DNA of 60,580 nucleotides, counting the filler, from Dugesia japonica (Eukaryota): the NCBI GenBank assembly GCA_001938525.1. It is 5 parts of 5 records of this genome, joined end to end, with 100 filler letters (N's around TTAATTAATTAA, not from the genome) between each part and the next. Parts side by side here need not be neighbours in the genome. Positions count along the whole stretch, not along the records: positions 51,562 to 60,580 come from MQRL01607561.1; 4 more parts are not named here. One strand, 5' to 3'. The notes beneath the pieces are model-generated. The model did no database searches, was not told the DNA's origin, and was given only the letters and a program-made list of their open reading frames with translations. The position numbers and the translations under genes are program-made. Positions 10,580 to 60,580 of this stretch are shown piece by piece; the first letter of the stretch is position 1, and each line of letters opens with the position of its first letter.

Positions 10580-10945
10580 AGTATATGTCTAAAGACCCCA
10601 ATTCACTCAGGGTTATGTGAAATATTAACTGTCAAATGTTTTATGTCAAATATTTTATGTCAAAGGTTTTATGTCAAATTTTTTGTGTGAAATATTAACT
10701 GAAAAATGTTTTATGTCAAATGTTTTATGAGAATGTTTATTGTCAAATGTTTTTATGAGAATTTTTTATGAGAATGTTTTATGAGAATGTTTTGTGTGAA
10801 ATATTAACTGCCAAATGTTTTATGTCAAATGTTTTATACCAAATGTTTTATGTCAAATATTTCAACTGAGAATGTTTTATACCAAATGTTTTATACCAAA
10901 TGTTTTAACTGAGAAATATCAACTGAGAAATATCAAATGAGAAAT
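10580..10945 (+). repeat. Left TIR of Polinton 1 (array of ~14-bp AAATGTTTTATRYC units plus AACTGAGAAATAT units)
   Basis: Reverse complement of the array at 25808-26217. Confidence 0.9.
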
Positions 10946-11022
10946 TTAAGAGGAAAAAACTTAAGAGGAAAACAATATGCACTATTAAATTTTTTATAAT
11001 AAAAAAGAAGAAAAAATATAAA

Positions 11023-14000
11023 ATGTCTTCATTAAAATGTCCTAATTGTGATAGAATTTTTTTAAATCAACGTGGTTTAAATTCACATATACAATCTAAA
11101 AAATGTGTAAATATAAATTCAAATGATTATCTAACATGTGTAATTTGCAATAAAAAATTTAAAACTCAAGCTGGTTTAAATGTTCACAAGAAAAAAACTA
11201 AATGTGATAGTATTATTTTATATTGTGAATTTTGCGATAAACATTTTGAAACTGAAGAATTAATAAATGAACATAAACTAACTAATAAACGACATTTGTT
11301 ATTAGTTAAAAAAACAGATAGAAATCGGAAAACAAAACCAAAACATATTAAAGAAGTTTTTAATGAACAAACATATCCAGATCATTATATTGATATTTTA
11401 TTAAATAGTAGATTATTAATGGTAAAAGATGTTGAAGATCTAAGATTAACTACAATGGAATTAATAAGACCAGAAATAGAAGAAATTGTTAGAAAGTTTT
11501 TTACGTTAGGATATAAATTTTATTTTAAAATGGGAGTTAGTTGTGAATATAACAAAGAAAGTAAAATAGCGACGTTTTATTCTTACAATAGTAATAGAAA
11601 AATTTATACAAAAGCATCAATATCTAAAAAATTATATCAAACGTTTGAACAGGTAGAAAATTATATGCGAAATAAATATTTTAATGAATCTAATTGGAAT
11701 TTAAGTCATATAATTGATTATAGATTACAATTAAAAAAATATAATTCATTAATAAAAGCTGGTGCTTTTAGTTATTGTGAATTACCAGATAGCATAACAA
11801 AAAATAGAAATGGAATTATTAATATTAAAAACTTTGATGATAAATGTTTATTATATTCAGTTCTTGCACATTAACATATTTTTCATAATGCTAGAAGAGT
11901 AAATAATTATATTCCATATTTAAAAGATTTAAAAACTGAAGGAATGAATTTTCCAGCAGAAATTGGTGATATAAAGATATTTGAAAAGTTAAATAATTTT
12001 AAAATAAAGGTTTTTGAATAAAATTTAAAATTTAAAATTACACCAATTCGTATTAAACATTTTGATGTTGCACCAAATCCGGAAGAAAATAAATGTAATT
12101 TATTAATTTATAAAAGCCATTTTATATTAGTTAGAAATGTACAAGTTTTATTTAATGTTAAACATGGTAATCAATTATGTCTTGGATGTATGAATATTTA
12201 TTCAAGTAAAAACGTTTTATTAAAACATCAAGAAGAATGTATTCATCATAAATCATTGAGTGTTAAATTTCCTATTCAAGAATACTTCGAATTTCAAAAT
12301 CATTATTTTAAAAATAAAATACCATTTGATACCACACAAAAGAAAATAATATCCAAGAACCAATAAGATTAGGAATATATTTCAAATCAGATTATCCTGA
12401 TTTAATGGAAAGTGATTATTATTATTCCACAGGTGATAATGTAATTAATGAATTTATAGACTTTCTTGAAAATATTAATAATAAATTTAATGAGTTAAAT
12501 AAATAATATACAAATACATATCCAGCCTTCGTCAAAAACACAAAATGTTATTATTGTGAAAAACCAATCGTTGAAAATCCAATTAAAGATTATAATTACT
12601 TCACAGGTGAATTTCGTGGTTACACACATACAAAATGTAAACAATTAAAAAAAGAAAATTTATTTATATCATGTTACTTTCATAATGCAATGGGATATGA
12701 CAATCATTTATTTTTTAGACAACTTTTATATAATCATCCAAAAGGAATAAAAAATATAATTCCACATTCTGACGATCAATATATTTCATTTCACTATAAA
12801 AGTATTAGATTTCTAGATTCTTTAAAAATATGTAAAACTACAGTTGAAAAAATGGGTGAAACATTAGCTAAATCAGGAAATCATGAAATATTAACATCTT
12901 ATGATTTAAAACCTAAAAAAGCAAGTTTTCCATATGATTATGGTAAAGCAAACAGTGCAACAGAAGCTGAAGAATTATTAAAATCAAATAGAATGCCAAC
13001 ACAAAAATGATTTCTTTAGCAAATTAAGACAAAAAGGAATAACTGACAATGAACATGATGAGTTTTTAATAGATTATTTAAACTTTGAAAATATGTGGGA
13101 TTACATGTTACACTATATGAAACTTGATGTTTTAATTTTAGCAGATTACGTAGAAAATTTTAGAAATATTTATTTAGAGTTTTATAAAATTGATCCATGT
13201 TATTGTTTTTCAGCATCAGGTTTAACATGGCAGCTGGAATGAGATTTACATAAGTTAAATTGAAATATGCAAAATCAGAAACTTATGATACATTTTTAAA
13301 ATTTGAACGTTGAGTTAGAGGTGGAGAAGAAGGTGAACGCCAAGTATTTTCATATGATAAATTTCGTGATTTAAGTAGAAGGTTAATGTCAACTCCAGAA
13401 ATGAATTATTTATGTGAAGTTGATCTTGATTATCCAAGAGAAATTCATGATAGAACTAAATATTTTCCATTAGCACCTGACAGAATAGTTATTGCAGAAG
13501 ATATGTTAAGTAATTATCAAAAATCATTTAATATAAAACCAATGAATCAATTTGACAAGAAAAATTATATAATCCTAGGTTCAGCATTAGATTTATATCT
13601 TTCTTTAGGAATGAAAATAAAAAAGATACATTGTAAATATAAAATGTCAACAATTCCATGGTTAAAAGATTACATACTTTTTAATATCAACCAAAGAAAT
13701 ATAGCAAAAAGAAATAATGATGAATTTTGCGTATCTTTCTTTAAAGATATGAATAATTCATTTTATGGAAAAACACTTGAAAATATTAGAAATAAATGTA
13801 ACGTTCGTATTGTAGGAACTGATAGAGAATATCAAAATCTTATATCAAAACCAACATATTTAAGTTGTAAAAGTTTCAAATTACATCCTGAAATTTCATC
13901 TCACATTGGAGCAGTTCATTTAACAAAAACAAATTTAAAATATGATAAATTTTCATATTTAGGTTTTTAAATTCTTGAATATGCAAAAAAAGTAATGTAC

Positions 14001-14543
14001 AATTTTGTATATAACCGATTGGAATCAGCAGTTGAACAAGAAAATTATAAAATTCATTATTCAGACATGGACAGTGTATTTGTAGAGATAACTTGTAATG
14101 ATAATTTAGAAAAATTTAATAGTTTAACTGGAAATGATTTATTTCAGATGAAAGATGAAATGCCAAATAATACAATTCTTAAATGTGCTTTCATAAAACC
14201 AAAATCATATGCTTATGAATATTCCGATAATAATAAAGAGATAAAACTTTATAAAAAACATAAAGGTGTTTAATCTTTCAATAAAATTGGAATGAAAGAT
14301 TTTGATTCAATATTAAATGATCCAAAGAAAATAATTTATGGAACAAATTATTCATTAAAATCAGAATTACATGAAATTCAATTAGTTGAACAAAAAAAGA
14401 TAGCATTAACAGGATATAGCGATAAAAGAATTATTGAAGATAATGTAACTAGAACATGGCCACATGGAAATCAATTTAATTGTGAAAATTGTGAAGATTG
14501 GCATTTTAGATTAGATTTAATAAATCATAAAATTTTACATTAA
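11023..14543 (+). pseudogene. polB: Protein-primed family B DNA polymerase with N-terminal zinc fingers
   Basis: Three zinc-finger-like motifs; IINIKNFDDKCLLYSVLAH; FHNAMGYDNH; RFLDSL; FPYDY; YMKLDVLILAD; KDMNNSFYGKT (motif B); YSDMDS (motif C); KPKSYAY; DKR...TWPHG; several stops and frameshifts. Confidence 0.95.
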
Positions 14544-14547
14544 TAAA

Positions 14548-30949: not shown

Positions 30950-32620
30950 GATTATTTTGTGTCTTGTTAGATGTGTGCGTTCTACATCCAAATTATCTAT
31001 CATAAAAGTATCTTATTTACTTTTAATTATTTTCAATAACCGTTGATCCTCTTTAATCTTAAAAATATTTAAAGCTCTTGTTAATCGCTCTCCTTTTTTA
31101 ATTTGTCTCCCATATTTCACTTCAATATTACAAATGTAAGTTTCTGATTTTTCATCCGTTTTGCTGTTAACCTTTCGCATAAGCTGATATCCAAACATAT
31201 TCTGCATATCTATTCCTCCTATCAGATCTGGTGTCACTCTTTTAGCAACTAAGAAAGTAATCTCTTTGCAAACTTTATCAATTATCACTCCAATTTTAAC
31301 TTTTCGAACAATTTCAAGTGTAATATTATTTGCACAACGCAATCTTACATCACTCATTTTTAAATGCATTTTTCGTAATTTATTAAAAAAAACTCAAACT
31401 CATAACGTTAATTCTAGCCCTTGTATCTAATAAACATTCTACTTTATTTCCTTGAATTGATACCGTAATACTTGGTCTGGTTTGCAATTTATGGTAAGAA
31501 ATATTTGTTTTCTGTTCTGCTTCAATTGTTCCAACTCATTCTACTTTTCTATCATCCGCAAAATTTTCCATCTTTAAGAACCTGTATACTTTTTCTGTAA
31601 CTTTTCCTATATCATCCCACTTTTCAGCCCCTTGAGGATAATGACTAACTTCATTTAACAATAGATGGCTCCAACCAACTCCTCAACTGGTGGAGCCTTG
31701 CCTTTTGGGTACTGCCATTCAGAATCACTTTCATACTCTTCGTCATATTCATCGTTTGTATTAACATCTTCAGCTTCAATCGCGTGTACTCGATTATATC
31801 GGTTTTTTGATCTTTCTGTAGACATAAATTTCTCACTAGTTCTTTTCATTTTTAAATTTGTGTAGCACTTTTCTGCTCTATGTTCACCATTACCATATCC
31901 TTTACACCTCACTTTTTGACATAGCCTTCTAATATGGCCAACCTTTCTACAGCCAAAACATTTTGTCGGTTTTTTATTTGGACAATCTCGACTTATATGT
32001 CCTGTTTTATGACAACTCCAACACTCTACCACTTTTTTCGTTGGAAAATTTGCTTTATTATGACCTATCTTATGACATAACCAACATTCGATATTTTGTT
32101 TTTCCTTTCTTTGATCCAAATGTCTATTCACGGTGTGATTTACAAGTTTCTGATCATTTTGACTTGTAACTCTCGTGTAACTTCTAACTGCATTGACTTG
32201 ATCTAGGTTTTTCTCTTTTCTTTCTACTAACGTTAATATTTCTTCAATTTATTCTATATTCTCTCGTTTCNGCAAAGTCACTTCTTCTTCAACTTTTTTG
32301 TTATCTGAACAATATTCTAGCATCTTTGCTACCACTTTTTCTTCAGCAAACTCTTTATTTGTAAATATTCGTTTTACTAAATCGTTTACATTTTTAAAAT
32401 AAACTTGAATCTCTTCATTTCCATGCCTGTAATTAATCAAATTTGGAAAATCTTTGATAACATCTTTCTCTTTTTCAAATGCCATACGTTAGCGAGCCTG
32501 GAAACTTTCAACATTTTTAATCATCTTTACATATTCTTCCAAAAATTCTTCATCTAACAAACAAGAGACTAATCTTTCCTGTTGTTTCACATGGGTGATG
32601 TTTTTAGCTTCAAAATACAA
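30950..32620 (-). pseudogene. Ty3/gypsy gag-protease fragment
   Basis: Several CCHC knuckles (CWSCHKTGHISRDC, CFGCRKVGHIRRLC), protease ECLLDTRA, linker homologous to 44280-44480; truncated at both ends. Confidence 0.85.
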
Positions 32621-41400: not shown

Positions 41401-44400
41401 AAGAAATATTGGCAAGAATAAAACTTTTGAAAGAATTAATTAAAGCTCGAGATTATTATAATAATTTCTTAACTAGTAATGTAATAGAATCTAAAACTTA
41501 AGAAGACACTTTAACCTGTGAACAACAACCTACTATTAAAGCTATTGAAAAATTAAATACAAAATATATAAACCCTTTTGAAAATAGAATACCATTCTTT
41601 CCTAAACTTAATTTAAATATTGATAATTGATCTTAAACAATTATACCTATATTTAAAATAGAAGTTATTAATAACAAAAACTTTCAAAAAATAGTTTACC
41701 CACACAAAGAAGTATATTTATTTGAAGAAAATGGAAAGAAATACTTTTTAACAAAAGAAGAACTAATACCTTATTCTGAAGAAGTAATGTATTTAATTTT
41801 AGGAAATGGAAGTAATGATCCAGAAGGAAAATATATTTATTTAAATAAATAAAATATTAAATTTCCAACTAATTGTAACTTTTATAAATTTTTAACTGGG
41901 AAAAAAACTTCAAAAATACCAATGCTTAAAAAAGAAACTCTTATAAAAGAAATCCAAGAAGATATTATTCAAGATGAAGGTTAATAAAGCTTTAAAAGAT
42001 TATGAAGCTCCTTCAAATCGCAAGCAAATGCGAGTCGAAAGTGATATAATAACTTTATTTGAAAGATTAACATAATTAATTTCAGCAGTAAAAGCTGGTC
42101 ATAATAATCTACACAAAGAAATAAAATCAGTTTGTAAAGAATTATTAAACCAAGAATTAATTTTCCAAATAAAAATAATACGTTTATAAANATAAGTATT
42201 TTGTGTAGTGGTAGTTTTAATAAATTTAAAATAAAGAAAATATCTCATCAATTTTTAGTTGTTGAAAAAGAATCTAATTTAGAAGTTTAAGATTTCTAAT
42301 AGAATTAGATTCTGATTATGAAATGGGATTATTATGTTTTAGTTGTTATAATATAATTGTTAATGTTACTTGTTAGGAGTTTAAAAATAAAATCCTATTT
42401 GTAATTTTAAAAATCATCATTTTTAAATAGTTTTAATAAATTTAAAATTAATTATTATAGCCAGTAAATTTTTCAACATTAGAATATTAATTTTTTATTG
42501 TTAAATAAATTTTTAAGTTATTGAAATTATTTTATGTATATAGAAACTGAACCCAATAGCTTAGCGACAGCTAACATGGCGACTACTACCACGGATTTAT
42601 TAATCAGCAGATTATTACCTGAGAGATTCTACAGAAAGGATAACCTAGAAGAATTCATTACAGATTGCCAACAATTTTTCAGAGTCACCAATACAAATCT
42701 GAAGATGCAGAAAAGTTTTGTAACTACCTTGTTGGATAAAGAATTGTTTGAGAAATACGAAACAGTATAAGGAAAATCGTTTGAAGAAAAGCTCAGAAAT
42801 GCCTTCCAAAAACCAAGTTCCTTAATTGAAGATCTAAAAGAAGCTTTAGGTTATGAACAAGGCAACNATTCGGCAGAGATATTCATCGATTAAAATCAAA
42901 AATTTGACAAAAAAGTTAATTATTCATAAATGGGACGAAGAAGAAATAGAAAAATGCTTATTAATGCACTGTGTTGGAGATAAAGAAGTAAAAACAGTAA
43001 TAGAAATGAGAGAATTAAGAACATCAAAACAAATCAGATCAACACTAACGAATGTTGAAAATGTAAATAAAGCAATTGTTAATATCAATGTTCTTAGAAC
43101 CTCAACAACAAAGAATGTCCGAAGTTATACATATGTGATACAGAAGGGACAGTTAAGAGATGCAAATATGAAAATAAATAAATATGATGAAAATAGACGA
43201 ATTCTAGTTTGTTGGACAGGCCAAAAACCAGGGCATATAAACAGTGATTGCCAAATGAAAAGAAGTTTTCAATGCTATGCATGTACAGCATTTGAACACA
43301 TGCGCAGAGAATGCCCAACAATTCAGTGTGGAAGATGTCTTCTGCTGGGACATAAAACAACAAAGTGTTACACAAATTTAGAAAGAAGACAGAAAGCGAG
43401 AATAGTTGATAATATAAATTATAATAGACATGATGATTTCAGAAATCAGAGTAATGAGACTAGAGATTTCATAAACAGAGATCAACAGAGGAACAAACAA
43501 AATAAAAAATGATATCAGGTATCAGTTCTAATGGGGATACACCAGTAGAAGAACAAACAATGAACTAACTGGGGAATATGAAGCAATAAATTACCCAAAA
43601 GGTTATGCTCCTTCCAGAGAGGCAATAGTCGAAGCAATTTATTAGGTAATTTTGAAGTTGATAATGATATTGGCTATGATAATGTAAATAAAATAGAGTA
43701 TTTTAATTTAAGTAATAATAATATTAAAAAATCATCTAGTAATAAATTATGTAATATGTATAGTAATAATTTTTTTAATTCTAAATATGATAATTATCTT
43801 GTAAATAATAATGATAACAATGAATATATTGAATGGAGAGTTACAGAGAAGATTTATAAATTTATTAAGAAAGATAATAATGTAAATGAAAATGAAATAA
43901 TAGAAGGTATTTCGATAAGCAAATTTTAACTATAGATGAAAGGAAACGACAAAGAATAACCTATAATAAAACGCTAGGCAGATCAAGTATAACGATATTT
44001 ATCCAGGGTCGTAAGATGGAGTGTCTATTAGATACAGGTGACCGTGTTAACGTATTATCAAAAACAATACTAGATAAATTAGAAGATGTAGAAATAATTT
44101 AAACCGATGAGTTATTAAGATGTGCGAATGATAGTAAATTAGAAAAAATGGGTAAAATTCATGTTAATGTCAAATTAGGAAATGAAGAGAAGAAAATAAC
44201 ATTCATAGAGGTAAAAACTATTATTCCGGATATTATTAAAGGTATTTAGCGTAAAAATCAATTCGGTATAGAACTGACATGGATAGAGAAAACAAAAGAA
44301 AGAACAGAATATTTTATATGGGATATAGAAGCAAAGTATGGCAGAAAAATCAAGGATGATGAAAGATTACGATGTGCTATAGAAATTTTGAAATTGAGCA

Positions 44401-47400
44401 AAAATATTAGATTAATGAAAATCGCGCAAAGAAATAAAAATATCTTCATAGCAGACAAGTGGGATATTGGGTGCACGGCTTTAATTGAACACGGAATTAA
44501 AACAAATGGAGTGCCGATAAATATAAAACCAAGGAGGCAGCCTGTAAATTTAGAAGGAAAAATAAATGAGGCTTTAAAAAATTTAGAGGACAATGATATA
44601 ATCAGGAGATACAACTCACCTTGGAATATACCTTTGGTATGTGTATGGAAACAAAGAAAGAAAGATATCAGATTGTGTCTAGATTTTAGACAATTGAATC
44701 AAATTACGGAAAGACAAGCATTCCTTATGCCAAATGTCGAAGACATTTTGGATACATTACATGGAGCTAAATATTTTAACTCCGTCGATCTAGGAAACGC
44801 TTATTACCAAGTAAGGTTTGATAAAAAATCGCAAGAAAAAACGGCTATTTCCACAAAGGAGGGTCAATTTTGTTTCAATAGAATGCAATTTGGCAATACA
44901 GCAGCTCCTGCAACCTTCCAAGAATTGATGAATAAGATATTAAAAGAGATGTGGAAGGACGGAGTAATGGTATACTTAGATGACATTTTGATTTTTACTG
45001 ATTCAATGGAAATACAATATATTATATTGGAAAAGGTTTTGAAGACAATTATAGATGTAGGAATCAGAGCTAATCCAGCAAAAAGCCAACTGTTAAAAAG
45101 AGAAGTTAAGTTTTTAGTTCACATTATAAACGATAAAGGTATTCAAACAGATGCGAGTAAAATAGAAATTATCCAGTCATTTCAAAGACTAAAATGTGTA
45201 AAAAACTTGAGGAGTTTCTTAGGCATATGCAATTATTATCAGACGTTTATTGGGGATTATGCAAAGAAATCAAAAGCATTAGAAGCTATGTGTGGGAAAA
45301 ATAATTCAAAATTGATATGGTCTGATTTGTGTGAAAAGCATACGAAGAAATGAAATTAGCATTAATAAGCTATCCAATATTGATATTCCCAGATTTCCGA
45401 AAAGAATGTTTACTCGACACCAATGCAAGTTTTGATACCATTGAAGCAGTATTATCTCAAAATTGATGAATACGGACATGAACATGTAATATCATATGGA
45501 TCTCATTCCATGAATGATCATGAANNNNNNNNNNNNNNNNNNNNNNNNNNNNNNNNNNNNNNNNNNNNNNNNNNNNNNNNNNNNNNNNNNNNNNNNNNNN
45601 NNNNNNNNNNNNNNNNNNNNNNNNNNNNNNNNNNNNNNNNNNNNNNNNNNNNNNNNNNNNNNNNNNNNNNNNNNNNNNNNNNNNNNNNNNNNNNNNNNNN
45701 NNNNNNNNNNNNNNNNNNNNNGAATTTAGAAAAGGTACAGCACATAGTAATGCAGATATGTTTTCAAGAAATAAATGTGGAACACGCGTGCAATGTCTAA
45801 TGGACCATGACCAACCAAAAGTAGGGTGATTAAAAACGAGATTATTAACCATCATTGCGGAAGATAATGGTGAAAATTGGCAAAATAATAGGGAAAATAA
45901 TTGAGGGGTATTATAGACAGGAGACTGCTACATTTATTGTTGAAGATGGTATTGTTTACACAAAACATAACAAGATATGGGTCCCGTCGTGCAATAGACA
46001 AGAAATGATTAAAGAGACTCATGTTTTACTGTGTCATGCAGGAGCAGAAAATACAATGAAATATATTAAAAATAATTTTGATATGAAGGATTTGGTTGTT
46101 GAATGAAAATGAATTATATGAGAATGTGATCAATGTCGAAAGACAAAGATAGTAACGACAAAAGTAAATGAAGAAACTAAAGTAGTAGTGGTAAATGAAC
46201 CGTTGGAGAAAATATATATGGATATTTGTGAACCGTGGAAAGAAGACGAGAGAGATATATTTGTGCAATTATTGACCATTACAGTAAATAAATGATATTA
46301 ACTGCTATAAATAAACAAGATGAAAAGACAATAGTCCAAGTTTTACTGAATAATTGGATACTAAAATTTNNNNNNNNNNNNNNNNNNNNNNNNNNNNNNN
46401 NNNNNNNNTTTGAAGCAAAGGGTGTAAAGGAAGTGACAAGTGCAGCAGGAATTGAGCTAATATTCTCTAGTCCATACCATCACAAAACCAATGGCATGAT
46501 GAAAAGACAGTTTTGAACCATTAGAGAATACATAAATGCATCATTAAAACATCGACTTAATACAGATTGTGCAGATATAATTCCGGAAATTGAGTACACT
46601 TTGAATTCGACAACTCAGAAAACCAACGGAGTAAGTCCAGCAGAAATTGTATTTGGAATAAAAATTAATAGATCAAAATGGTTTAGTAACAGCAAAGTAG
46701 ATAGAGAAGCAATGATGATGAAAATTGAAACACAAAAGAAGGAATATAACATAAGAATAGCACGGAATTTGAATGTTGGAGACGATGTTCTAATTAAGCA
46801 AGAAATACGTAATAAAGATCAAAATAGATTTGTAGAACCATATACGGTCGTCGAAGATTAAAGATTTTTAAAAATCGGGATGTTAGGAGTTAAAAAATAA
46901 ACTCCTATTTGTAATTTTAAAAATCATCATTTAGAAATCGGTTATTGAAGTAACCAATTTTTTTATATTTTGTTTGATTTTTAGATTTTAATTTTTAGAA
47001 ATTATTACCATGGTAAATAAGTTTAAGAAATCATTTCGATTTTTTATTGTTTTCATTTAAGAAATTAATTGCACAACTTTTTTCATTTTAGAGATTTGAG
47101 AAAGTTGTATACTGCAGTATACACTTTTTTCATTTGTAGAGATTTTTAAGTTTTTAGATTTTAAATTTTTAGATTTTAAAAATAGTGAGATTCGCTCACA
47201 TTAAATTACATTTTAAATTTCGTTTTAATTTATCTAACATTAAATGCCACTGCTTATAAATTTTATAATAAACTTATTTCCTTGTTGTCAAGTTCTTACA
47301 CCATTGCTTTCAATTAATCTCTTATCATCATAACCTGTTAAAGCTATTTTCTTTTGTTCAATTAATTATATTTCATGTTTATTTGATTTTAAAGTATAAT

Positions 47401-48557
47401 TAGTTCTATAAATTATTTCTTTTGGATTATTTAAAACTTTATCAAAATTTCTCATTCTTATCTCATAAATTTAGAAACACCTTTATGTATTTTATCCAAT
47501 TTTATATCATCTCGATCCATAACTTTTTGATTTTATAAAATCACATTTGATTATTTCTGAATTTGGCTTTTCGTCTTTAATTTTAAATAAATTATTACCC
47601 AATAAACTTTCAACTTGTCTTAAATTATTTTTTCGAATTATTTCTATAAAAATTGAATCTGTATCACTATAATGAATTTTATATTTACCTGGGATCTTTA
47701 CATCTAACTGTTTATATATAAAGTCATAAATTACTTCTTTAGCATATTCCAAAATAATAAAACCAATGGATGGAAATTTTATTATATTTTAATTCTGTTT
47801 GTCTCAAATGAATTGCAGCTGTTTGAGCTTCACTTGTTTCTGAGCATGTAAATATTTTGCTAGATCTTAAGTTTATTTTTGAAGCAAATTTCTGATAATC
47901 TTTATCAGTTCCAACTATTTCTACTTTACATATTTTTCTAATATCTTCTAAAGGTTTTCCATAAAATGCATTATTTAATAATTTAAAGAAATAATCTCCA
48001 AACATATCGGTATTTCTTTTTGATATATTTCTTTGATTAATATTAAATTCAATATAATCTTTTAACCAAGGTTTTGTTTGTATTTTATATTTACTATGAA
48101 TTGTTTTTATTTTCATTCCTAAAGATAAATATAAATATAAGATTTCTAAAGTACTTCCCAAAACAATATAATTTTGTTTGTCGAATTCATTCAATGTTAA
48201 TTTAATATTTTTCTTACTCAACTTTTTATTAAATGATAATTGATAAGGAGCTAACATTTCTTGAGTTATGTTTATTCTATCTGGAGCTATGTGTAGAATC
48301 ATTACCTAATAAACTATAAAATTTTGGAGTACTGCATGTAATTACTTAATCGTATTAATTTACGTCAACGGGAAGTTACCTGTGCGCTCATATCCGCCTA
48401 CTTTAATGAATTTTAAATTTATGCTATTCAAAGTTTATTTGTAAATTTTAATACTTACATTTTTTGTTTTATAGATATTAAGATTCAAAGACCTTGGATT
48501 CGATATATCAATGAAAATAAAGAAGCTTGGAAATCAAGAGCTAATAAAAAAGAATAA
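38483..48557 (+). CDS. PDE1: PDE1-like cyclic nucleotide phosphodiesterase, 3' exons (38483-38603, 38649-38730, 38770-38877, 48475-48557)
   Basis: Spliced: KAFSLLVHCADISHPTKQWDLHEKWTHLLVEEFFRQ/GDREKEMGLSCSPLCDRNTTVVAQSQIG/FIDFIVEPSF.../DIKIQRPWIRYINENKEAWKSRA; introns of 45, 39 and about 9600 nt, GT-AG, phases consistent. Confidence 0.88.
38930..39350 (-). pseudogene. Ty3/gypsy gag 5' fragment
   Basis: ERLLPKIFCRGDDLETFIKRCEIYF...MLDEDL; homologous to gag at 42576. Confidence 0.75.
39984..40759 (+). pseudogene. Polinton 2 packaging ATPase
   Basis: FLIIGSSGSGKN, LIIFNDV, FTRGKHVNCNVIYISQTY; clearly homologous to 21261-22036. Confidence 0.9.
40870..41390 (+). pseudogene. Polinton 2 pX-like protein
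   Basis: GFAFLAAIPAIIAGLAST..., GSGLYLKPY; homologous to 14548-15228. Confidence 0.75.
41391..42200 (+). pseudogene. Polinton 2 conserved hypothetical protein
   Basis: QQPTIKAI; LFERLT*LISAVKAGHNNLHKEIKSVCKEL; homologous to 15279-16162. Confidence 0.65.
42241..42370 (+). pseudogene. Polinton 2 penton 5' end, cut by LTR insertion
   Basis: SHQFLVVEKES...IELDSDYEMGLLCFSCYNIIVNVT matches the penton at 16178 and stops at the LTR TG at 42371. Confidence 0.85.
42576..43512 (+). pseudogene. gag: Gypsy gag
   Basis: LLPERFYRKDNLEEFITDC; three degenerate CCHC knuckles; stop and frameshift. Confidence 0.85.
43970..46861 (+). pseudogene. pol: Gypsy pol (PR-RT-RNaseH-INT)
   Basis: CLLDTG; SPWNIP, RLCLDFRQLN, DLGNAYYQV, YLDD; LRSFLGICNYY; HVLLCHAG; SSPYHHKTNG; SPAEIVFG. 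Confidence 0.95.
47230..48302 (-). pseudogene. polB: Polinton 2 pPolB C-terminal half
   Basis: KLLNNAFYGK, HYSDTDS, KSKSY, KKIALTGYDDKR; homologous to 13470-14543. Confidence 0.92.
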
Positions 48558-49699: not shown

Positions 49700-50340
49700 A
49701 TTTCCAACGTCTCCGACTCTTTCAGATTTTTAACACCTTTTCAACCTTTATATACGTCTGTATTTCGAACCTTCTGAATTCTGTAATCTTACATGATGAG
49801 ATGATAAGAATTCCATAATTTCGAAAGGCCTGTCATATATAATCGTTTTACCGGATCTCTCTTTACCAGATCTTTATCTCCAACTTTAAATTCCCTTCAA
49901 CTCGGTTTCCTTCTTGATTGATAATTTTTTCCGAAGCTTCGTTCAGTTTACTTTCGGCCTTTTCCAGAATTTCTTTACGGTTACTCTTGAATTCTTTCGT
50001 TGAATCAATATTAATTGTCCTTCCATAGATAACTTCCACCGGAGAGAATCCTGTCGCCTTTGATATCGTGCAATTGAATAGAAAACTCAACTTTTGAATG
50101 AATTTCATCCCAACCCTTCTTTTCTTCTCCAGATTTCAAAAATATTACTATCATATATCTGACAGTTCTAATTGCGCGTTCTGCTTAACCATATGACTTA
50201 TACTCATGGGGAGATGTAAATGTCCACGAAATATAAAATCTTGAAGCAAACTCTTGTAAAACCTTTCCTTCAAACACTCTTCCTCGATCAGAAACAATAC
50301 GTTTAGGTTTTCCATATTTGTAACTCCAGTTATTTAACAA
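49700..50340 (-). pseudogene. Gypsy integrase C-terminal fragment
   Basis: NNWSYKYGKPKRIVSDRGRVFEG, SPHEY, KATGFSPVEVIYG. Confidence 0.8.
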
Positions 50341-50479
50341 AGCACTTTAAAAAAACTCAAAATGAAAATTTAAAACAATTACTTATTAGTCATTTAATTT
50401 TTTCATTCCTATTTAAATCTTTTTTAAATAAAGGATTTCAAGAAAACTATCACAAACTTCACAAAAATTTCAACTCGCT

Positions 50480-51050
50480 TTTCAAAACATACTCACATCT
50501 TCCTTTTTCTACGTTTTTTTCGAGACTTTTTCCAACTGTATCTTCAAGGATGTAACATCTGTCGTGAAACTTTCCTTTAATCTTTTAAGGTCCTTTAAAA
50601 CAATCTAAGTTCTTGTCTCTTGTTTCAACTTTGACTAAAGCCTAATCACCGACCTCGAGTTGTCTTTTGGTTAGTATCTCTTCATCTTGCTCTTTGTGCA
50701 CTCTNTGAGTATTTGTTTCGCACCATTTTTTTCTGCTTATTCTTTTCCCAAATACAATTTCAGCTGGGCTATTTCCTATGGTTTCCCGCAATACATTGCC
50801 CAATATGAGGTTTGCATTTCTTTTACTGTCGCATTTATCATGTCTCAAATAGTTCTAGATTGTCTTGCAATTTTTCCATCAGTGTTATGATGATATGGAC
50901 TCGAAAACCTGAGAGTAATGCCATGTTCAGCTGTAAAATCTTCCAATGATTTTGACTCAAATACTCTTCCACAATCAACTTTAATCTCCCTCTGACACTT
51001 GAACTTTAATAACCACTTCTCCATTATTGTCTTGTCATTTCTATCAAAAC
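50480..51050 (-). pseudogene. Gypsy integrase C-terminal fragment
   Basis: IKVDCGRVFES, FSSPYHHNTDG, SPAEIVFG, LEVGD; homology ends at about 51050. Confidence 0.85.
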
Positions 51051-51580
51051 TATATACGTGTTGGGATGAGACACCGGGTACCGAAAATAAAAATTGCGAC
51101 AAGTAGACTCGAAGTTAAAAAATTGTCGTCAGAAAAGAAAGCGAAGCATTCAGACCTAAGAAGAAAATAGTTCAGTGAAAGAAGAAAAAAATTTTTAAAA
51201 AACCGAGATTGTTAGTTAAAACCAACGAAATAATCAACAAAACTCAAAATTTACAACAAGAAACCACTCAGAAAAAAACAGACCAAAGAAGAAAAAAAGT
51301 AATAGAAGTTGTAGCAGGACAAAGAAAGATAATGAATAACCATTATTTCGTCGGGCAAAATCAAGAAAATGGAATTAATTATTAATTATTAAATAATTTA
51401 AATGAAGAAAACAGTGAAATTAAATTAAAACCAAATCAAGGAACAAAGAAATGAACACTTANNNNNNNNNNNNNNNNNNNNNNNNNNNNNNNNNNNNNNN
51501 NNNNNTTAATTAATTAANNNNNNNNNNNNNNNNNNNNNNNNNNNNNNNNNNNNNNNNNNNNACAGAAATCATCACTTTAT

Positions 51581-53010
51581 TTGGACCAGGAAGGGAATAT
51601 CGGTACACCCAAGAAACCAGAAGTTAACAGATCAAATTCACTACATAAAACCAAAACTCTAGAACCTATCAGTTCAAACAGTAGCCCAAGTGATAAAGAA
51701 AACAAAGCCGACCAAAAAGCCACATCTAATAAAACTCCAGGGGATAGTAATCGATCAAGTGGACTAAGTTATACATCAGAGGAACCAGAAATCGTAGAAG
51801 TAGCAAACACCAGCCTAGTAATCATCAACTCACTAATAGTACAACCCGACGAGGTAGAAACCGAGACATCCACATTAACAAAACAAAACCCGAAAATAGA
51901 AATTAATTTGGAAAAAGATAAAAATATGACAACTAAGACCGAAAACCATAGACCAGAATGGAAAATAAAATTCGACGGTGAATATTTTAGTGGAATCCCA
52001 GAAAAATTGGATGAATTTATACAAAATTACGAAATGTATGCCAAGACCTGTGGCTGGGATGAGGAAGCAAAAAGAAAACGACTACCGGCTTACTTAACAG
52101 GAGTAGCAAAAACTGTATTTTGGGATCATACTAAAGGCATGGAAGCCATTCCNNNNNNNNNNNNNNNNNNNNNNNNNNNNNNNNNNNNNNNNNNNNNNNN
52201 NNNNNNNNNNNNNNNNNNNNNNNNNNNNNNNNNNNNNNNNNNNNNNNNNNNNNNNNNNNNNNNNNNNNNNNNNNNNNNNNNNNNNNNNNNNNNNNNNNNN
52301 NNNNNNNNNNNNNNNNNNNNNNNNNNNNNNNNNNNNNNNNNNNNNNNNNNTTCTTAAACGGATTACGCGACGAAAATGCCAAATTAATGGTAAAATTAAG
52401 TAAACCAGTAACGCTACAGGATGCTTTAGCTACATTACGAATTGTAGCAGACCGACCATCGGAACGAATATTCAAAGTGGAAGGACAAGCCGAGGAAACT
52501 TCACCAAGGATATCGGACTTCATACCGAATACACAATCAATGATGAAAACCCTGACCCCAGGGCAGGAAAGGAATAACCGGAATGACAGACCAAATTATC
52601 CTAGAGGAAATAATGGAGGATTTAATGCACCACGGAATAATTGGCAAAACAATCGAGATATCCAATGCAATACATGCGGTAGAAGGGGACACATATCTCG
52701 CGATTGTAGAAGCAAAGGCAATAATAGTAACAACAACCGATTCTGTACTTATTGTAAGAAGACCAACCACAACGTGGAAACGTGTTTTTTGAAAAACCCG
52801 ACCGTATGTTATAAATGTAATAGAAGGGAACATATGGCAAAAGAATGTCAAGCCGGAAATCAAACCAATTATAATCGAAATCCGAATACAAATCTAGAAA
52901 ATCTCATGCAAGAAAACGAGAGATTGAGACAGCGAGCAAATCAAAACAAGGGTGATGAACCAGTTGCTACGATTATAGCACCCACAAGTACACGCCAAAG
53001 TACGGGCTAA
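51581..53010 (+). CDS. gag: Ty3/gypsy-type Gag
   Basis: KFDG...LDEFIQNYEMYAKTCGWDEEAKRKRLPAYLTGVAK capsid-like region; FLNGLR; three CCHC knuckles (CNTCGRRGHISRDC, CTYCKKTNHNVETC, CYKCNRREHMAKEC); spans an N-gap. Confidence 0.88.
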
Positions 53011-56000
53011 TTGGCAGAAAACGATATCAGATTACATTACCGAACTGTACCAGGAAACCTAGTTAGAGGATTATGAGTTCGAAATTCAATACGTATGGCA
53101 CAACAACCCAGAAGTCATTCCAAAACGGGTAAAATTACCACTAAAAGAAATGACGGTACGACATTTGAAAATAGCACTTAACAATATAAAGTGGGATAAC
53201 ACAAACCCATCTCTCGACTCACTACCATTTGACGAGCAACAACAATGGAATAGGAAGTGGAATAAACATCGAATACAAATAAACAATATTGGCATCAACA
53301 TTACTCCAGACGATAAGAATTTAATCTATTACGGGGCAAGACCTCATGAGATAACAACGATCAAGTTAATTAATTGGGGATTAGTATTCAGACCCCAGAT
53401 AGTAATTAAAGAAACAGATACAGGCGAGCTATATCATAATCTAGAAGAAACATTCCTAAAGGAAATTGTTCCCCTTCAGTCACAACCGTACATGCGTAAA
53501 AGATTGGGGACAGTAAGGTTAATGGACCATCTGGAATTGGGACAAATCGAAGCATCAAGATTATCACTAGCTCGGATAGATGAGATATTAGTAGCCGCCA
53601 AGAAACTCAACGACACCATCAGGAAGGAAGTATATTTAAAATTGACAAACCGTTTAGTGGAGCTTTTGGAAGTTATAAAATTGATAACCACGGAAGAAAG
53701 TGATTGGACGGAATGGTTACCAGTCCATTACGATTGGGTAATATCTAATATGGGATTATCGGATTATCAAGTATGGTTGTATAATCCGGAAGGTAATATG
53801 AAATTAACTCTTGCGGGATTAATGGTAGAAGATCTGGAAACTGCACTCAGTCAAGCCGGTCATACATGCGTGATGGATAAATACGTATGTACTCCAAGTG
53901 CGATAGTGGATTTTAATGCTCGAAAAAGACATATCTATGACTTTGGAATAAAGCCTGGAGAAGATATTGAAATCGTGATATTAGACAAACACCCCGGTAT
54001 CGATTACGACGTATGGGTAACAAAAACGGAAAGATCAGCCTTAGAAATCATGGGGGAAATGGAATATCTATATAAACAAGGAGTAGAGCCCATTAAAATT
54101 AAGATACTTTGCACAGTGCTCGGAAAGAAAGATAAACTAACGAAGGACGAAAGGAAACAATTGTTAATGACGCGTAATGACTTCCTCAGACAACGATTGG
54201 AGAGGAGAGAAGGTAAATGCAACATGATTCGAATGCAACAGATGCCTTCAAGGGAGATAATAGCAATGCGTAAAGTGGAGGAGATGGTTAACAGAATGCA
54301 GATGGAGAAGGAGAATTTACCCCGAGAAACCTATTGGATGATAATGAATAGAATCTACGACATATATGATGGACTAAAGATACCAGAGGAAGTCGAAAAG
54401 CAGTGGCTCATGATTAGGCAGAAGTATGCCGAAGAAATATTAGCGACTACCAAGATTCGGGACTATCAATTATATTTAAATATCGGTAAAAATGAACAAG
54501 ATTTGACGAGATACAGTCGATTGAAACCACAAGGAATCACCATGATGGATTTAATGGANNNNNNNNNNNNNNNNNNNNNNNNNNNNNNNNNNNNNNNNNN
54601 NNNNNNNNATGAATAGAATCTACGACATATATGATGGACTAAAGATACCAGAGGAAGTCGAAAAGCAGTGGCTCATGATTAGGCAGAAGTATGCNNNNNN
54701 NNNNNNNNNNNNNNNNNNNNNNNNNNNNNNNNNNNNNNNNNNNNNNNNNGGTAAAAATGAACAAGATTTGACGAGATACAGTCGATTGAAACCACAAGGA
54801 ATCACCATGATGGATTTAATGGATGCTGTTACGGATAAGTGGCGAGAACAAGGGTTAAATATGGTACCCCTATTTATAAATGGCAAATTGGTGGAAACGG
54901 ATGATGAGGATAGACATATATTCCAATGTCACGCCAAACCTGGAGAAATATGTGAGCTGGATGGGGAGGACGAATCTCGAACAATCCCATCACCGAATCT
55001 TAATGAAAGTATGGATGAAATAACAGAAATATATGTGACTGAAGTATTGGCGGGCATGAAGGAACAGATAAAGGAGAATCAGAAAATACAGGATATTGAT
55101 AACTTGCCAATAACCACCACCAAATCTGTTGTATTCCCAGAAGGGACACCCACAATACGTGATATTCGGATAAACTACACCAAACCGATAACGGAGGAAT
55201 CGGCCACGTTTCATGCTATTAATGACTTAATGAGAGTAACTCGCGAAACTCGCCCAGTAGTGGATATCAAAGTATATTGGAAAATGATGAATAATCTACG
55301 AGATTTAGCTACCTATGGTCAACTTAGCTTGTGGGCTAGAGCACAATGGTGGAAAGAGAAAAATTTATATGAAGAGGAAGTGCAAAACACCTCCACCATA
55401 TCGGATTACTCCATCAGAGTTAGCCTGCTCAACAAGGAAGGGCACATAAAAAAGGTCGATATGATAACATTGGAGGGATTAACGATGCGATACATTTTGA
55501 AACCGATAAAAAAATGGCTATGGCCAAAATCCATCAAATCTTATAAAATACAGGCTGGAGCAACAACAATCCTCTTAGCCAAAAAAGCAGATCACATCTT
55601 CTTGCACGATATCAAACCGGGAGAGATCACAGAAATCAAACTAACGCCACGTAAAATGGCAGTAGACCTTCCAATACCAAAAATGCCGGATACCGATCAG
55701 CTCATATTCAACATGATGAGTTTATATCTACAAGAGATATTGCCGATAGAAAATGAACGACTCATAAATACTTATGGCGAAAATAAAGCCCAAGTAAATA
55801 TGGTCCGGAGTGGAGATCCTGACACACCAGACCTAAGCTCAGACGAAGAAGAACAGGATGAGGGAATCTCGAAAGATATGGGCCAAACCCGATTGTTACC
55901 CTTTAAACCCGAATTCGCTGGTCCCTTCAGTTCTCCTCAGACGGAGCGGATATCGAAAATAATTGCAGACTTCTGTTATTTTCAGGAAAGAATACCGCGA

Positions 56001-57879
56001 GTAGCCTTTTGGAGAGCATTGAATTTATTGATGGATCTGACAAAATATACGGAGATAACTAAGGAAGACCGTGCCAAATGGGAATCGGTAATCACGCCGT
56101 ATATTGGTACAGTAAAGGCAAGCGTCCGGGGAAAAGATTTCCAAGTTACAATAGAATACTTGACGCCAAACAAGAAACCCAGGAAGGAACCGGAATTGGC
56201 GGTTATGCATATACCAAAATTCGATAGCACATCAGCAAGAGAATTACAGGAAATTATACAATCACTGGATATAAATGATCAACAGAAAGGTTATGCGATT
56301 ACTAGTGATCACCTAAGATTTCCGATAAAGTTTGAAGGGAAGCAACATCTAATGGACGTCGGGTTAAGGCCTGGTGAAAATACATTCCTTCAAATACAGA
56401 GGCACGAGGATTACATTCCAGGTCTAGTGAAATCTATGGGGGAAGTGATCCAACAATTAGAACAATTACACGAACAAGAAATCAACGGGGGGACAGTTAT
56501 TCGAAGAGATCGATGATAGAACAATGGAGATAAATATTGAACTATGGGAAGGCAGTAAAACATGGGGAGGTTTAGCGCGAGTAATAATGAAAATACTTTT
56601 AACATTAGAAGAAAACATGGAACTGTTACGACATGATAAAGTAATCCAATTAGTTCTCAAACTAAATCAACTACGAGCTATAAGCCAAATGCCCGAAGAC
56701 ATTATGGATGCGATATTAAATAAAGCAGTTCGAATGATAGCCAACGAAACAGTCAACGTAGTAATAAAATTTCCTGATGAAAGTGAACTTCAATGGCAAG
56801 TCCAGATGAATGAGCCATGGGCTAAGTTACGAAAAAGGATCGTAAAATTCATGAACCAACAACGCAATTTTGACGAGGAAGAAACTGGGACACAACCAAC
56901 AGTACAAGAAGACGATATAATACTCTATTACAACCAAGTAATAGAACCGGATCAAATGAGACTACCAGTAAAATATATGGGGGTTTGGCCGGGTACTAAA
57001 TTAAAACTCTACGTAACAGCAAAGGGGGAGAAGAGACCACGACCACGAGTCTCGGAAGAGAAATGGAAGCAGGAGGCGAGAGAATTGGTAGAATATTACG
57101 TAGAAGAAATACACCCCTTAGTATTTGCAAGAGCTAAACTCCCGAAGCAAGAACAAACAAAACAAAAAGTGGAAATGGTGGCAGCCTTGACCAACACCCC
57201 GGTCAAAGATGAAAAGCCGGAAGACAATTTGCCAAAACTATTCGAATTATTGATGGAGAATAAATTAATAAAGCCAGAAATTATCCGGTGGTGCAATGTG
57301 GTTCTACAACAAGACCTGACAAGAGAAGACCTCAGAAAATTGCGACGACTAATATTGGCTGTCAAAGCATCCCATGTTTGGGACCCGACTCAGTTTAACA
57401 AACTTCTGGTTAAGTGGCGGAAAGCAGAAATGGGCCAGGCCACGCCATTAGAAATCAAATTCCGGATAATCGACCCGGAAGGAGACAAAACCACGATTAA
57501 GGTACCAGTTTATTATACGGTAAAGCATATACGGGAAAAATTGCCGTTTAAGCCACCATATAAACTCTTAGACGACGAAGGAATAGTGGAGGACACCACC
57601 CCAATCGGACTGATGAAAATAGACTTAATCAAACCTAATACGTTGTGGATTTTCCCAGAATTAGGAGGTACCCTTACTCGAAAAGACGCAGACCCTAATA
57701 AAGCAGCGGATAAGACTCGACCAATAATGGGCAAAACTTCGGGTATGTTGAAGGATTATAAACAGCGAACACAACTAGCAGCTAGCCAAATATTGGCCAA
57801 CAACAGACCAATCAGGAAGTACCGAAGCGTCTCGGGAAACGAAAGGAACCCCCAAAACCAGCCAGGACTGGGAACGTGA
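52979..57879 (+). CDS. Repeat protein with ~7 ubiquitin-like domains separated by helical segments (part of a larger frameshifted ORF)
   Basis: Recurrent DY/DF-beta start and C-terminal signatures YGARPHE, FGIKPGE, CHAKPGE, HDIKPGE, VGLRPGE, MGVWPGT, DLIKPNT; ORFs 53150-54616, 54609-56516 and 56524-57879 abut. Confidence 0.6.
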
Positions 57880-58387
57880 AATATTCGGATCCCCATCAGT
57901 AGACGAGTCAGTGGACGACGAAAACGAAGTACAAATTACAAAATATTCGCCTCCAATTAGGAAAAGTGAGGAGAAAAAGGGCAAAAAGGTCACACCAACT
58001 AAAAAATATGACCCCACCAAGGTCGACTTGGATGAGGAAGACATATTGGAAGACCAACCACTATCACCAATATTAAGTAGAATAGCGAAAGAATTACCAT
58101 CGTCGGGGATGAATGATTTCATGGACGCAAACCATCCGCTAGACATGGAAAATCCAATAGCGATAGTAGAGAAAGAGACACCACCAAAACCAGTACGCAC
58201 CCGAGTAGATGCGGAAAGAATTACTGAACCACGTAACAGAGGGCGACCAAGAACGAAACCTCCCGGAAACCCAGAGGAAGAAGAAGTGTTAAAACAGAGA
58301 CGACTAGCAACATCAATAAACCATCAAACTAAGAGATTAGCAACGGTGTCACAAGAGAGATATCAAGAAAATTCAGTAGACGATGAC

Positions 58388-58790
58388 ATGCCCACAGAGG
58401 TAGTAATACGACAATTATTGCTAATGCTATATCCAGAACTGAAAATATGGATCGGTAAATTTCAATTATCCGATACCCTCCGACCATTAGCAAAAGAAAT
58501 CGAGGCAGCAATTAGGAAATTCCCTGCTACTAAAGGAACTAGTCATGGTACTAGAGATAACCTAGAGGGAGTAATAGATGAACTATTACAGGATTCACCT
58601 ACGAACGGAAGAGTAGTAGTATCTATTGCACACCTAATCAATCAGACACACTTATCAATTGCTAGAAGCAAGCCGTCAAAAAACTTCATTCTCAGTAAAT
58701 TGCCGATAGTGGACCTAATGCAAAACAAAATAGTGCCATTGATAAAGCAACAAGGTGGATGGAAAAAGTTTATTGAGATCATTTGTCCTA
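58388..58790 (+). CDS. Bcl-2-like domain within ORF 57911-59827
   Basis: BH3-like DTLRPLAKEIE, BH1-like VIDELLQDSPTNGRVVV and BH2-like LIKQQGGWKKF in canonical order and spacing. Confidence 0.7.
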
Positions 58791-58885
58791 AGCCACAACC
58801 ATCACATGAAAATGCAACTCGAGTAATAAAAATTGTTCGGGATCAGTTAAACGAAATAGAGAATGGATGGACACGTGGAAATTCG

Positions 58886-60580
58886 TGGCAGGCGTTAGCA
58901 ACCACGATACTCGTGTTGTTCTTAATGATGGGTAGAAGCGAAGCCATACTGGCGTATGACTGTGACAAAATACAGGTTGGGAAAGAAGTATTCTCGCTAA
59001 TAGATACAGAAGAATGCCCAGATGCAAACCCCGAAAAAATTTCACTTCGAAACAATTCGGTCTATCATCTCTATCAGGAGTCAGATTATTATAAAGCCCA
59101 GGTACGCGAGTGTGCGGTAACGGTAAGNACTTTCATATTTCATTGNGNNTATCATAGTTATNCGTCAATAATCGATCCCGGAACGGTAAGGCATCCGGTA
59201 CACTTAACCGGACAGCAATGCGATGAAGGATTTGCTACAGGGAAAATTACCATCAAACATGGTACTCAAGTTGTTGCCAAGAAAGGACATGTAATCGACC
59301 AACCTATCGAAGCAGCAGGAAGTATATCCACCCATAAGGGTAATTGCGAATATGGTACATATACTATACGAGGAAAGGTATGGCAATATGCAGTATCAAT
59401 CGAAACCTACACAGTAGAACTCAAGAAATATGAAGCATTTTTTAATGCTCAGGATTTGACGATGAAAAGAAGGTCATACTGCAAGGCAGCCGATGGGGCA
59501 TGCAATACAGGCACATCAACATTGACATACAAAGTAGATCACCAGGACTGTAAGTTGGCACACCTAAAAGAAGCCGTGTTTAATGAATATCAAGGACAAC
59601 GTGCAATATCGCCTACTAATCAAGCAACCCCAGCAGGTAATCTAAAAGATGTAATAGATAATTTCAAGGAAAACATAAAGACAGGCCCAAAATCATATGA
59701 CCAACAGTGNNNNNNNNNNNNNNNNNNNNNNNNNNNNNNNNNNNNNNNNNNNNNNNNNNNNNNNNNNNNNNNNNNNNNNNNNNNNNNNNNNNNNNNNNGG
59801 CCAAATAGTGTTCAAAACCAACTATAAAGGGATCTTTGTGTCCGAACACCGAATAAGAACGGCGAAAGCCACAGTAATATCAGAAGATATCAAACTACAC
59901 CTTTATACCAATAACAAATTGGACAACATATTTTATCGAATGCAAGATACCATCGGACGGATGTACCACGATCTCGTCCAAAATGACTGTACCTTAAACA
60001 AAGAGATATTAAAAACAAAACTAGCCATGGCAGTTACGAACCCTGACAGTGTCACCCCATTACTTCCATTGGAAAAAGGATAATTCGGTCGAGTAGTAGG
60101 AGAAGTGATGTACTTATATAAATGCAAGGCCATCGATGCAGAATTCTCGTCAAATCCAAAACACTGTTACAACGAAATAGAAATTATTCACAACAACAAG
60201 AAAAGATACGTACAACCCATTACGCGAATAATATCGCCGTTGGGCTATAGGCCGAATATCATAAATTGTTCCAACGTGTTTGGACCACAATACGTAATGA
60301 CGGACGGTTCATGGATAAGGTTCCCACAACGAATGTCAGTGGGAGTCGAACCACGGAAATTCTCGATGTTACGACTAAATGGAGGTATGGAATTTACTCC
60401 AATCGATATAAACAAAGGAGGGATCTACAGCAGAGAAGATTTAGAGAAAGCAAGAGAATATATGTTGTTCCCAGTCCGAAGAATGCATATTCTCTCAAAT
60501 ATCGTGCAATTAACCAGTGGAACCAACATCGACGGCCGAGTAAACTATGACGCGTTATTATCAGCGGACCACTTTCAAAA
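58886..60580 (+). CDS. env: Chuvirus-like (class III-type) envelope glycoprotein, runs off window
   Basis: Signal WQALATTILVLFLMMGRSEA/ILAYDC; SLIDTEEC; LYQ...VREC; AAGS...GNC; YTNNKL; GEVMYLYKC; CYNEI; PITRI; GGIYSREDL...MLFP; one in-frame stop at 60081. Confidence 0.85.

Follow-up and report, generated by a model that had tools for sequence, protein, structure and literature searches.

Our main reading, to which we assign a probability of roughly 0.8, is that the window (the whole stretch of 60,580 nucleotides of Dugesia japonica DNA that was analyzed) carries a divergent Bcl-2-like domain in frame before the Env of a Gag-Env retroelement present in high copy number, which is likely a planarian element of the Burro type (Ty3/gypsy). 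In intact copies, this domain would likely be cut free, the Env signal segment would keep it at a membrane, and it would likely dampen apoptosis. The Bcl-2-like helical domain lies on the plus strand at 58391–58783, as located by matches to Pfam, Atlas, the relative P0004 and a profile. The sequence-only reading of this DNA had proposed a Bcl-2-like domain encoded by a retroelement, in an intronless frame continuous with Env. The domain and its place in frame with Env are borne out by Pfam, Atlas, P0004 and a joint profile, and the continuous frame is seen directly: between 57779 and 59707, the Bcl-2-like/Env frame has no stop codon and runs into a Monjiviricetes_fusion match (E 4.1e-29). All three motifs proposed in that reading (58478–58771) fall within one plus-strand frame, 57779–59827. 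The Bcl-2-like part is followed by a linker, a hydrophobic segment (58886–58945), and a viral fusion glycoprotein.

A comparison with Pfam, which had been put forward as a check, showed that the 139-residue domain matches a single family, Bcl-2 (PF00452), at E 0.0019. The score of 19.1 bits is below the curated cut-off of 31.4, and because unrelated stretches of the same element matched Pfam at E 0.019–0.22, this lone score is modest. When the window domain alone was searched against the PDB, Bcl-xL was found at E 0.17, ranked behind maspin at E 0.14. A search among 1.84 billion representatives returned two matches, P0003 and P0004. P0003 matches over 51 residues and was dropped, being a repeat protein without relation to the domain. 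In P0004, Bcl-2 part, hydrophobic segment and Env are joined as in the window, with 33% identity over the alignment. On its own, P0004 matches Pfam Bcl-2 at E 0.012 (16.5 bits, below the cut-off), and all 52 of its PDB matches are Bcl-xL. When only the Bcl-2 parts are aligned, window against P0004, the score is 120 versus a shuffle mean of 28.4, and none of the 5000 shuffles reached this score. The two share 31 identical residues of 122 in the Bcl-2 part and 28 of 56 in the N-terminus of Env. Further homologue searches gave 0 of 202 and 0 of 224 candidates, the joint profile recovered 1 of 2681, which was P0004 itself, and locus scans of metagenome and viral contigs revealed no relatives.

The joint profile of the window domain and P0004 yielded 66 PDB matches at E ≤ 1, the best at E 1.7e-4, a match a thousandfold better than that of the single-sequence search. 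The Bcl-2 family accounts for all 60 of the PDB matches listed (of 66), one of which is a viral Bcl-2 homologue at E 0.013. The matches listed for the joint profile and for P0004 include no further family: they comprise Bcl-xL and Bcl-2, which are pro-survival, and viral homologues of Bcl-2. The three best Atlas clusters carry the poxvirus Bcl-2-like, Bcl-2 and adenovirus E1B-19K families (0.90–0.92); the Atlas recognition is 1866, under the 2300 level, and the named families occur on 13–29% of cluster members, with Poxv_Bcl-2-like on 23% of the members of the top cluster. The individual Bcl-2 scores are all weak and below the Pfam cut-off. Since Bcl-2 is the sole Pfam family matched and independent lines agree, the match is more than chance. 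Judged by these sequence comparisons, the window domain is a real, divergent Bcl-2 homologue.

The sequence-only reading had placed LRPLAKEIE, ELLQDSPTNGRVV and IKQQGGWKKF in the order and spacing of BH3, BH1 and BH2. The positions hold and alignment to Bcl-xL supports the BH1 and BH2 assignments, but the BH3 label is unsupported, and the helix it names lies largely outside the matches. The BH1-like motif ELLQDSPTNGRVV (58580–58618, plus strand) reads TNGR where Bcl-xL has NWGR, and the BH2-like motif IKQQGGWKKF (58742–58771, plus strand) keeps GGW. BH1 and BH2 follow in order and spacing within one stretch aligned with Bcl-xL, with small gaps and degenerate motifs; in this alignment, the window copy retains the Gly-Arg of BH1 and the GGW of BH2. 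The proposed BH3-like helix LRPLAKEIE (58478–58504, plus strand) is without the Gly-Asp pair, which is absent from both the window domain and P0004. Most of it is outside every match (Pfam, PDB single-sequence and joint profile). The first domain residue within the Pfam match is 37 (profile position 14), and alignments with Bcl-xL start at residues 49–51, leaving the start of the proposed BH3 uncovered. The changes of NWGR to TNGR and of GD to AK had also been taken as a sign of viral mimicry. This is unsupported: P0004 alters the BH1 motif differently, and its four-letter motif, NRDK, has no residue in common with the TNGR of the window.

AlphaFold modeling had also been proposed as a check. 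Two inputs were used with AlphaFold2, the single domain and a two-row alignment of the window and P0004. Both models are all-helical and of low confidence, with pLDDT values of 49.9 (single domain) and 41.3 (two-row alignment). With a low-confidence model as the query, Foldseek gave no match at E ≤ 0.001; the top match was Bcl-w, with E 0.026 and an rmsd of 16.1. Of the 50 rows that VIA-align gave for each low-confidence model, none was a Bcl-2 protein, and the best Z values were 5.4 and 6.0. As both models are of low confidence, they leave the Bcl-2 fold unconfirmed, and together with their structure searches they weigh neither for nor against it. The Bcl-2 fold is thus predicted from sequence.

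The gB-type (mononegavirus/chuvirus-like) Env ectodomain occupies 58946–60580 on the plus strand, where the window cuts it off. Its open reading frames match PF24664 in three pieces (E 4.1e-29, 5.3e-10 and 4.8e-25), and it is interrupted by an assembly gap (59710–59798), a stop (60081–60083) and the end of the window. The hydrophobic segment that precedes it (58886–58945, plus strand) is the predicted Env signal peptide and, likely, the tail anchor of the Bcl-2 domain. It has the top 19-residue hydropathy, 1.67, among the eight ORF pieces scanned. The Env profile match begins inside it. The segment is internal to the polyprotein, lies in register in P0004, and doubles as the predicted Env signal. 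In P0004, the hydrophobic segment aligns with the C-terminal hydrophobic stretch of Bcl-xL. The end of the window segment has a small-residue pattern, which we take to be typical of signal peptidase sites. The distance from the BH2 Trp to the start of the segment is 42 residues in the window and 28 in P0004, a linker difference of 14. From these features, we infer that one hydrophobic segment serves both as the Env signal peptide and as the Bcl-2 tail anchor.

In an intact polyprotein, the hydrophobic segment would direct Env to the ER lumen, and signal peptidase would cut after it. Once this cut is made, the Bcl-2 domain would remain anchored by its tail on the cytosolic face of the ER, and an upstream protease cut would free the domain from Gag. 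We rate the signal peptidase step, with the anchored Bcl-2 domain on the cytosolic side and Env in the lumen, as somewhat more probable than its opposite. The function that we consider most likely for the domain, at about even odds, is pro-survival; we propose it because of the analogy with viral Bcl-2 proteins and the IAP cargo of Burro1, which is reported to protect planarian stem cells (as cited in the available part of PMC13465017). The literature on Bcl-2 proteins with altered BH motifs cuts both ways. In the accessible sections of PMC5691656, canarypox CNP058, a poxvirus Bcl-2 with TWGR, binds Bim, and mouse Boo, whose motif is SWSQ, fails to bind any pro-apoptotic partner. Deerpox DPV022 binds Bak, Bax and Bim although its BH motifs cannot be recognized (PMC11209288, from the text available). 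Three points speak against the pro-survival and anchor model: the linker differs by 14 residues, Env needs a signal anyway, and the groove motif is not conserved. Any Env requires a signal peptide, whether or not it also anchors a Bcl-2 domain. A literature search, in which subscription papers and bioRxiv supplements were beyond reach, found no functional test of the Burro BCL2 region and no statement of the signal/anchor idea.

A more tentative and rather doubtful extension is that planarian Gag-Env-Pol elements took up a Bcl-2 gene, tail anchor included, and put that anchor to use as the Env signal peptide, so that a single cut would supply a survival factor bound to the membrane at every site of Env production. 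If so, these elements would have, in addition to the IAP, another means of blocking death that acts further upstream, and a retroelement would carry a working Bcl-2, as large DNA viruses do. If the Bcl-2 domain is active in the polyprotein, Burro-type elements would influence host cell death on two levels. Using one segment as both signal and anchor would also explain how Env can be placed between Gag and Pol in one frame.

Several poxvirus Bcl-2-like proteins act as scaffolds that interfere with host signaling. The window domain could likewise keep a Bcl-2 fold without a death-blocking job and work as such a scaffold, alongside the ubiquitin-like modules, which we regard as unlikely but worth weighing. 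It would fit a BH1 signature that differs at all four positions between the window and P0004, a BH3 Gly-Asp pair missing in both, the Poxv_Bcl-2-like label on 23% of the top Atlas cluster, and the presence in Burro of a separate IAP cargo for survival (PMC13465017, available part). However, every sequence match listed is to Bcl-xL or Bcl-2, both pro-survival, or to a viral Bcl-2 homologue, and the window copy retains the Gly-Arg of BH1 and the GGW of BH2.

The domain might instead be an old passenger that is now a folded spacer before the Env signal peptide, without host-directed activity. The lower identity to P0004 in the Bcl-2 part (31/122) than in the Env N-terminus (28/56) points this way, as does the one contig in each of three runs that skips 58363–58793. 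Yet two elements that are only 33% identical both keep the domain, with all of its helical length and at one and the same position, and it is reported in several Burro families (PMC6431247); we hold this explanation to be improbable. Chance similarity of an amphipathic helical region draws on the weak single-sequence E-values (Pfam 0.0019; PDB 0.17, with maspin first at 0.14). It is already largely refuted, and we give it very little weight: P0004 matches Bcl-2 independently in Pfam and the PDB, the joint profile improves the match a thousandfold, and a BCL2 motif is published at the same place in Burro (PMC6431247). The preferred reading remains that of a divergent Bcl-2-like domain with a likely role in dampening apoptosis.

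Burro, or GYPSM1, elements are giant Ty3/gypsy LTR retrotransposons of planarians (PMC6431247, available part, citing Jurka 2007 and Grohme 2018). Their Gag has two or three CCHC knuckles at the N-terminus, three of them in Schmidtea mediterranea; a SUMO-like domain (PF11976) precedes BCL-2, and the Env, which is mononegavirus-like, comes after BCL2 and ahead of the protease (PMC6431247). The BCL2-like motif is credited to Grohme 2018, as cited in the accessible text of PMC6431247; it is reported in several Burro families, and decayed Burro copies are described as well (PMC6431247). The calls of other Burro modules (MATH/TRAF, Smc, BIR and ankyrin) came partly from HHpred, and the set varies between species (PMC6431247). 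In the available part of PMC11410931, Burro is merely named. The window element resembles Burro/GYPSM1 in its Gag with three CCHC knuckles, in a SUMO-like domain ahead of BCL2 (on a weak Atlas basis), in a BCL2-like motif followed directly and in frame by a mononegavirus-like Env, and in a high copy number (thousands of diverged contigs per run, which is not a copy count). Unlike the single uninterrupted polyprotein ORF of Burro/GYPSM1, the window copy has stops, frame changes and gaps. MATH, Smc, BIR and ankyrin gave no Pfam match in the element pieces scanned. None of three BURRO1 primers (from the PMC8532177 supplement) matches the window at ≤3 mismatches; they may target another region or family. 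We consider it very probable, from this shared architecture, that the element is a Burro element of a planarian host. Because the order of Gag, SUMO-like domain, BCL2 and Env is published for Burro (PMC6431247), a Bcl-2-like domain before Env was already known. With the BCL2-like motif before Env in print, the observation itself adds little.

Six S. mediterranea elements, Smed_errantivirus_1–6, have an Env of the HSV/gB type, and flatworm elements are arranged GAG-ENV-POL (PMC13524379, available part). The window element, like these six, has a gB-type Env after Gag. Compared by eye with the Env rows in the available part of PMC13524379, the window Env shares blocks with Smed_errantivirus_5 and 6, for example IETYTVELK with number 5, but is identical to none of the six. 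In the main text of that paper, 'bcl' does not occur. As in Bcl-xL, the BH1-to-BH2 region aligns and a C-terminal hydrophobic segment then follows; unlike Bcl-xL, the window domain has TNGR for NWGR and no clear BH3, is embedded in a polyprotein, and has a tail that continues into Env. It also resembles the viral Bcl-2 proteins (poxvirus Bcl-2-like, adenovirus E1B-19K and ASFV A179L) in being divergent, intronless and borne by a mobile element, and these include its nearest Atlas clusters. The poxvirus Bcl-2-like, E1B-19K and ASFV A179L proteins are encoded by free-standing genes of DNA viruses, whereas the window domain is part of a retroelement polyprotein. Elements of this kind are known to carry another cargo related to apoptosis, the B-IAP of Burro1 (Dev Cell 2026, as cited in the available part of PMC13465017). 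Unlike the window domain, B-IAP is a BIR-RING caspase inhibitor with a tested function and belongs to a different protein family (PMC13465017, same part).

The region 54760–59120 was compared with four sequencing runs, in which 20295, 12279, 11421 and 3998 contigs were placed, covering 30 of 30 bins in each run; contig depth is not copy number, and one of the four runs may be the window's own source. The commonest class of contigs is 90–95% alike, and the Bcl-2 bins are among the deeper bins of the region. The element family is abundant, with many diverged copies. Given this coverage in four runs, the Bcl-2-like domain is a feature of the element family, not a peculiarity of the copy in the window. 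In each of three runs, one contig joins across 58363–58793, nearly exactly the Bcl-2 domain, with the letters in between unread; such contigs represent either a copy without the domain or one with a very diverged domain. In all four runs, contig depth at 57242–57533 is far below that elsewhere in the element, and contigs skip 57246–57544 in three of the runs. This may be a fast-evolving or an optional stretch of the polyprotein. Four RNA runs, read to 6–25% and without a positive control, gave 0, 3, 0 and 1 partly placed reads.

Upstream of the Bcl-2-like domain, all on the plus strand, the N-terminal part of Gag comes first (51902–52152); it is capsid-like by eye and is assigned by its ORF and its position before the knuckles. 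It has no Gag family match in Pfam, and an assembly gap (52153–52350) cuts it. The three CCHC zinc knuckles of Gag follow at 52666–52848 (zf-CCHC E 1.8e-09, three pattern matches). A long polyprotein region, defined by ORFs in two frames with two assembly gaps, spans 53063–56516; these approximately 1100 codons gave no Pfam match better than E 0.019. By eye, it holds additional short units rich in beta structure, which could be ubiquitin-like repeats as well. A 472-residue upstream ORF gave no useful PDB match. At 56731–57030, a ubiquitin/SUMO-like domain is likely from Atlas look-alikes, of which the named ones listed carry Rad60-SLD (PF11976) or ubiquitin (PF00240) with a score of 0.90; PF11976 is on 22–36% of their members, which is weak, and the segment has no Pfam match. 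A possible second ubiquitin-like domain was noted by eye at 57436–57660, which has no ubiquitin match in Pfam.

The copy is broken by a stop at 53008–53010, frame changes near 56461–56516 and 57779–57879, a stop at 60081–60083, and assembly gaps. It is unlikely to yield a complete polyprotein. Because the window stops within Env, it shows neither a 3′ LTR nor Pol, the part after Env that in Burro/GYPSM1 comprises protease, dUTPase, RT, RNase H and integrase. No long repeat inside the window pairs with the 5′ end of the element as a 5′ LTR would. Between assembly gaps, stretches of 86 and 74 bases are repeated exactly, 265 bases apart (54344–54558 and 54609–54823), likely a scaffolding artifact.

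The window also contains other mobile elements. Decayed Maverick/Polinton (adintovirus-like) pieces are found at 10927–24736 and 47507–48305. They include an A32-type ATPase (21479–21970), an rve integrase (22278–22730), a phospholipase A2-like domain (22801–23364), a weak double jelly roll match (23409–23828), and DNA polymerase B-like fragments recognized by eye (13314–14273 and 47507–48305). Two arrays of 14-base tandem repeats, in inverted orientation and about 15 kb apart, flank the Maverick-like genes (10585–10949 and 25756–26217) and are possibly the terminal inverted repeats of the Maverick-like element. Fragments of ordinary gypsy elements are present at 31013–32248, 42850–46861 and 49863–51114. 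These carry zinc knuckles (31658–32248), a reverse transcriptase (44250–45350, E 2.9e-26), and, on the minus strand, an integrase piece (50848–51114) that lies directly upstream of the Burro-type element in the window.
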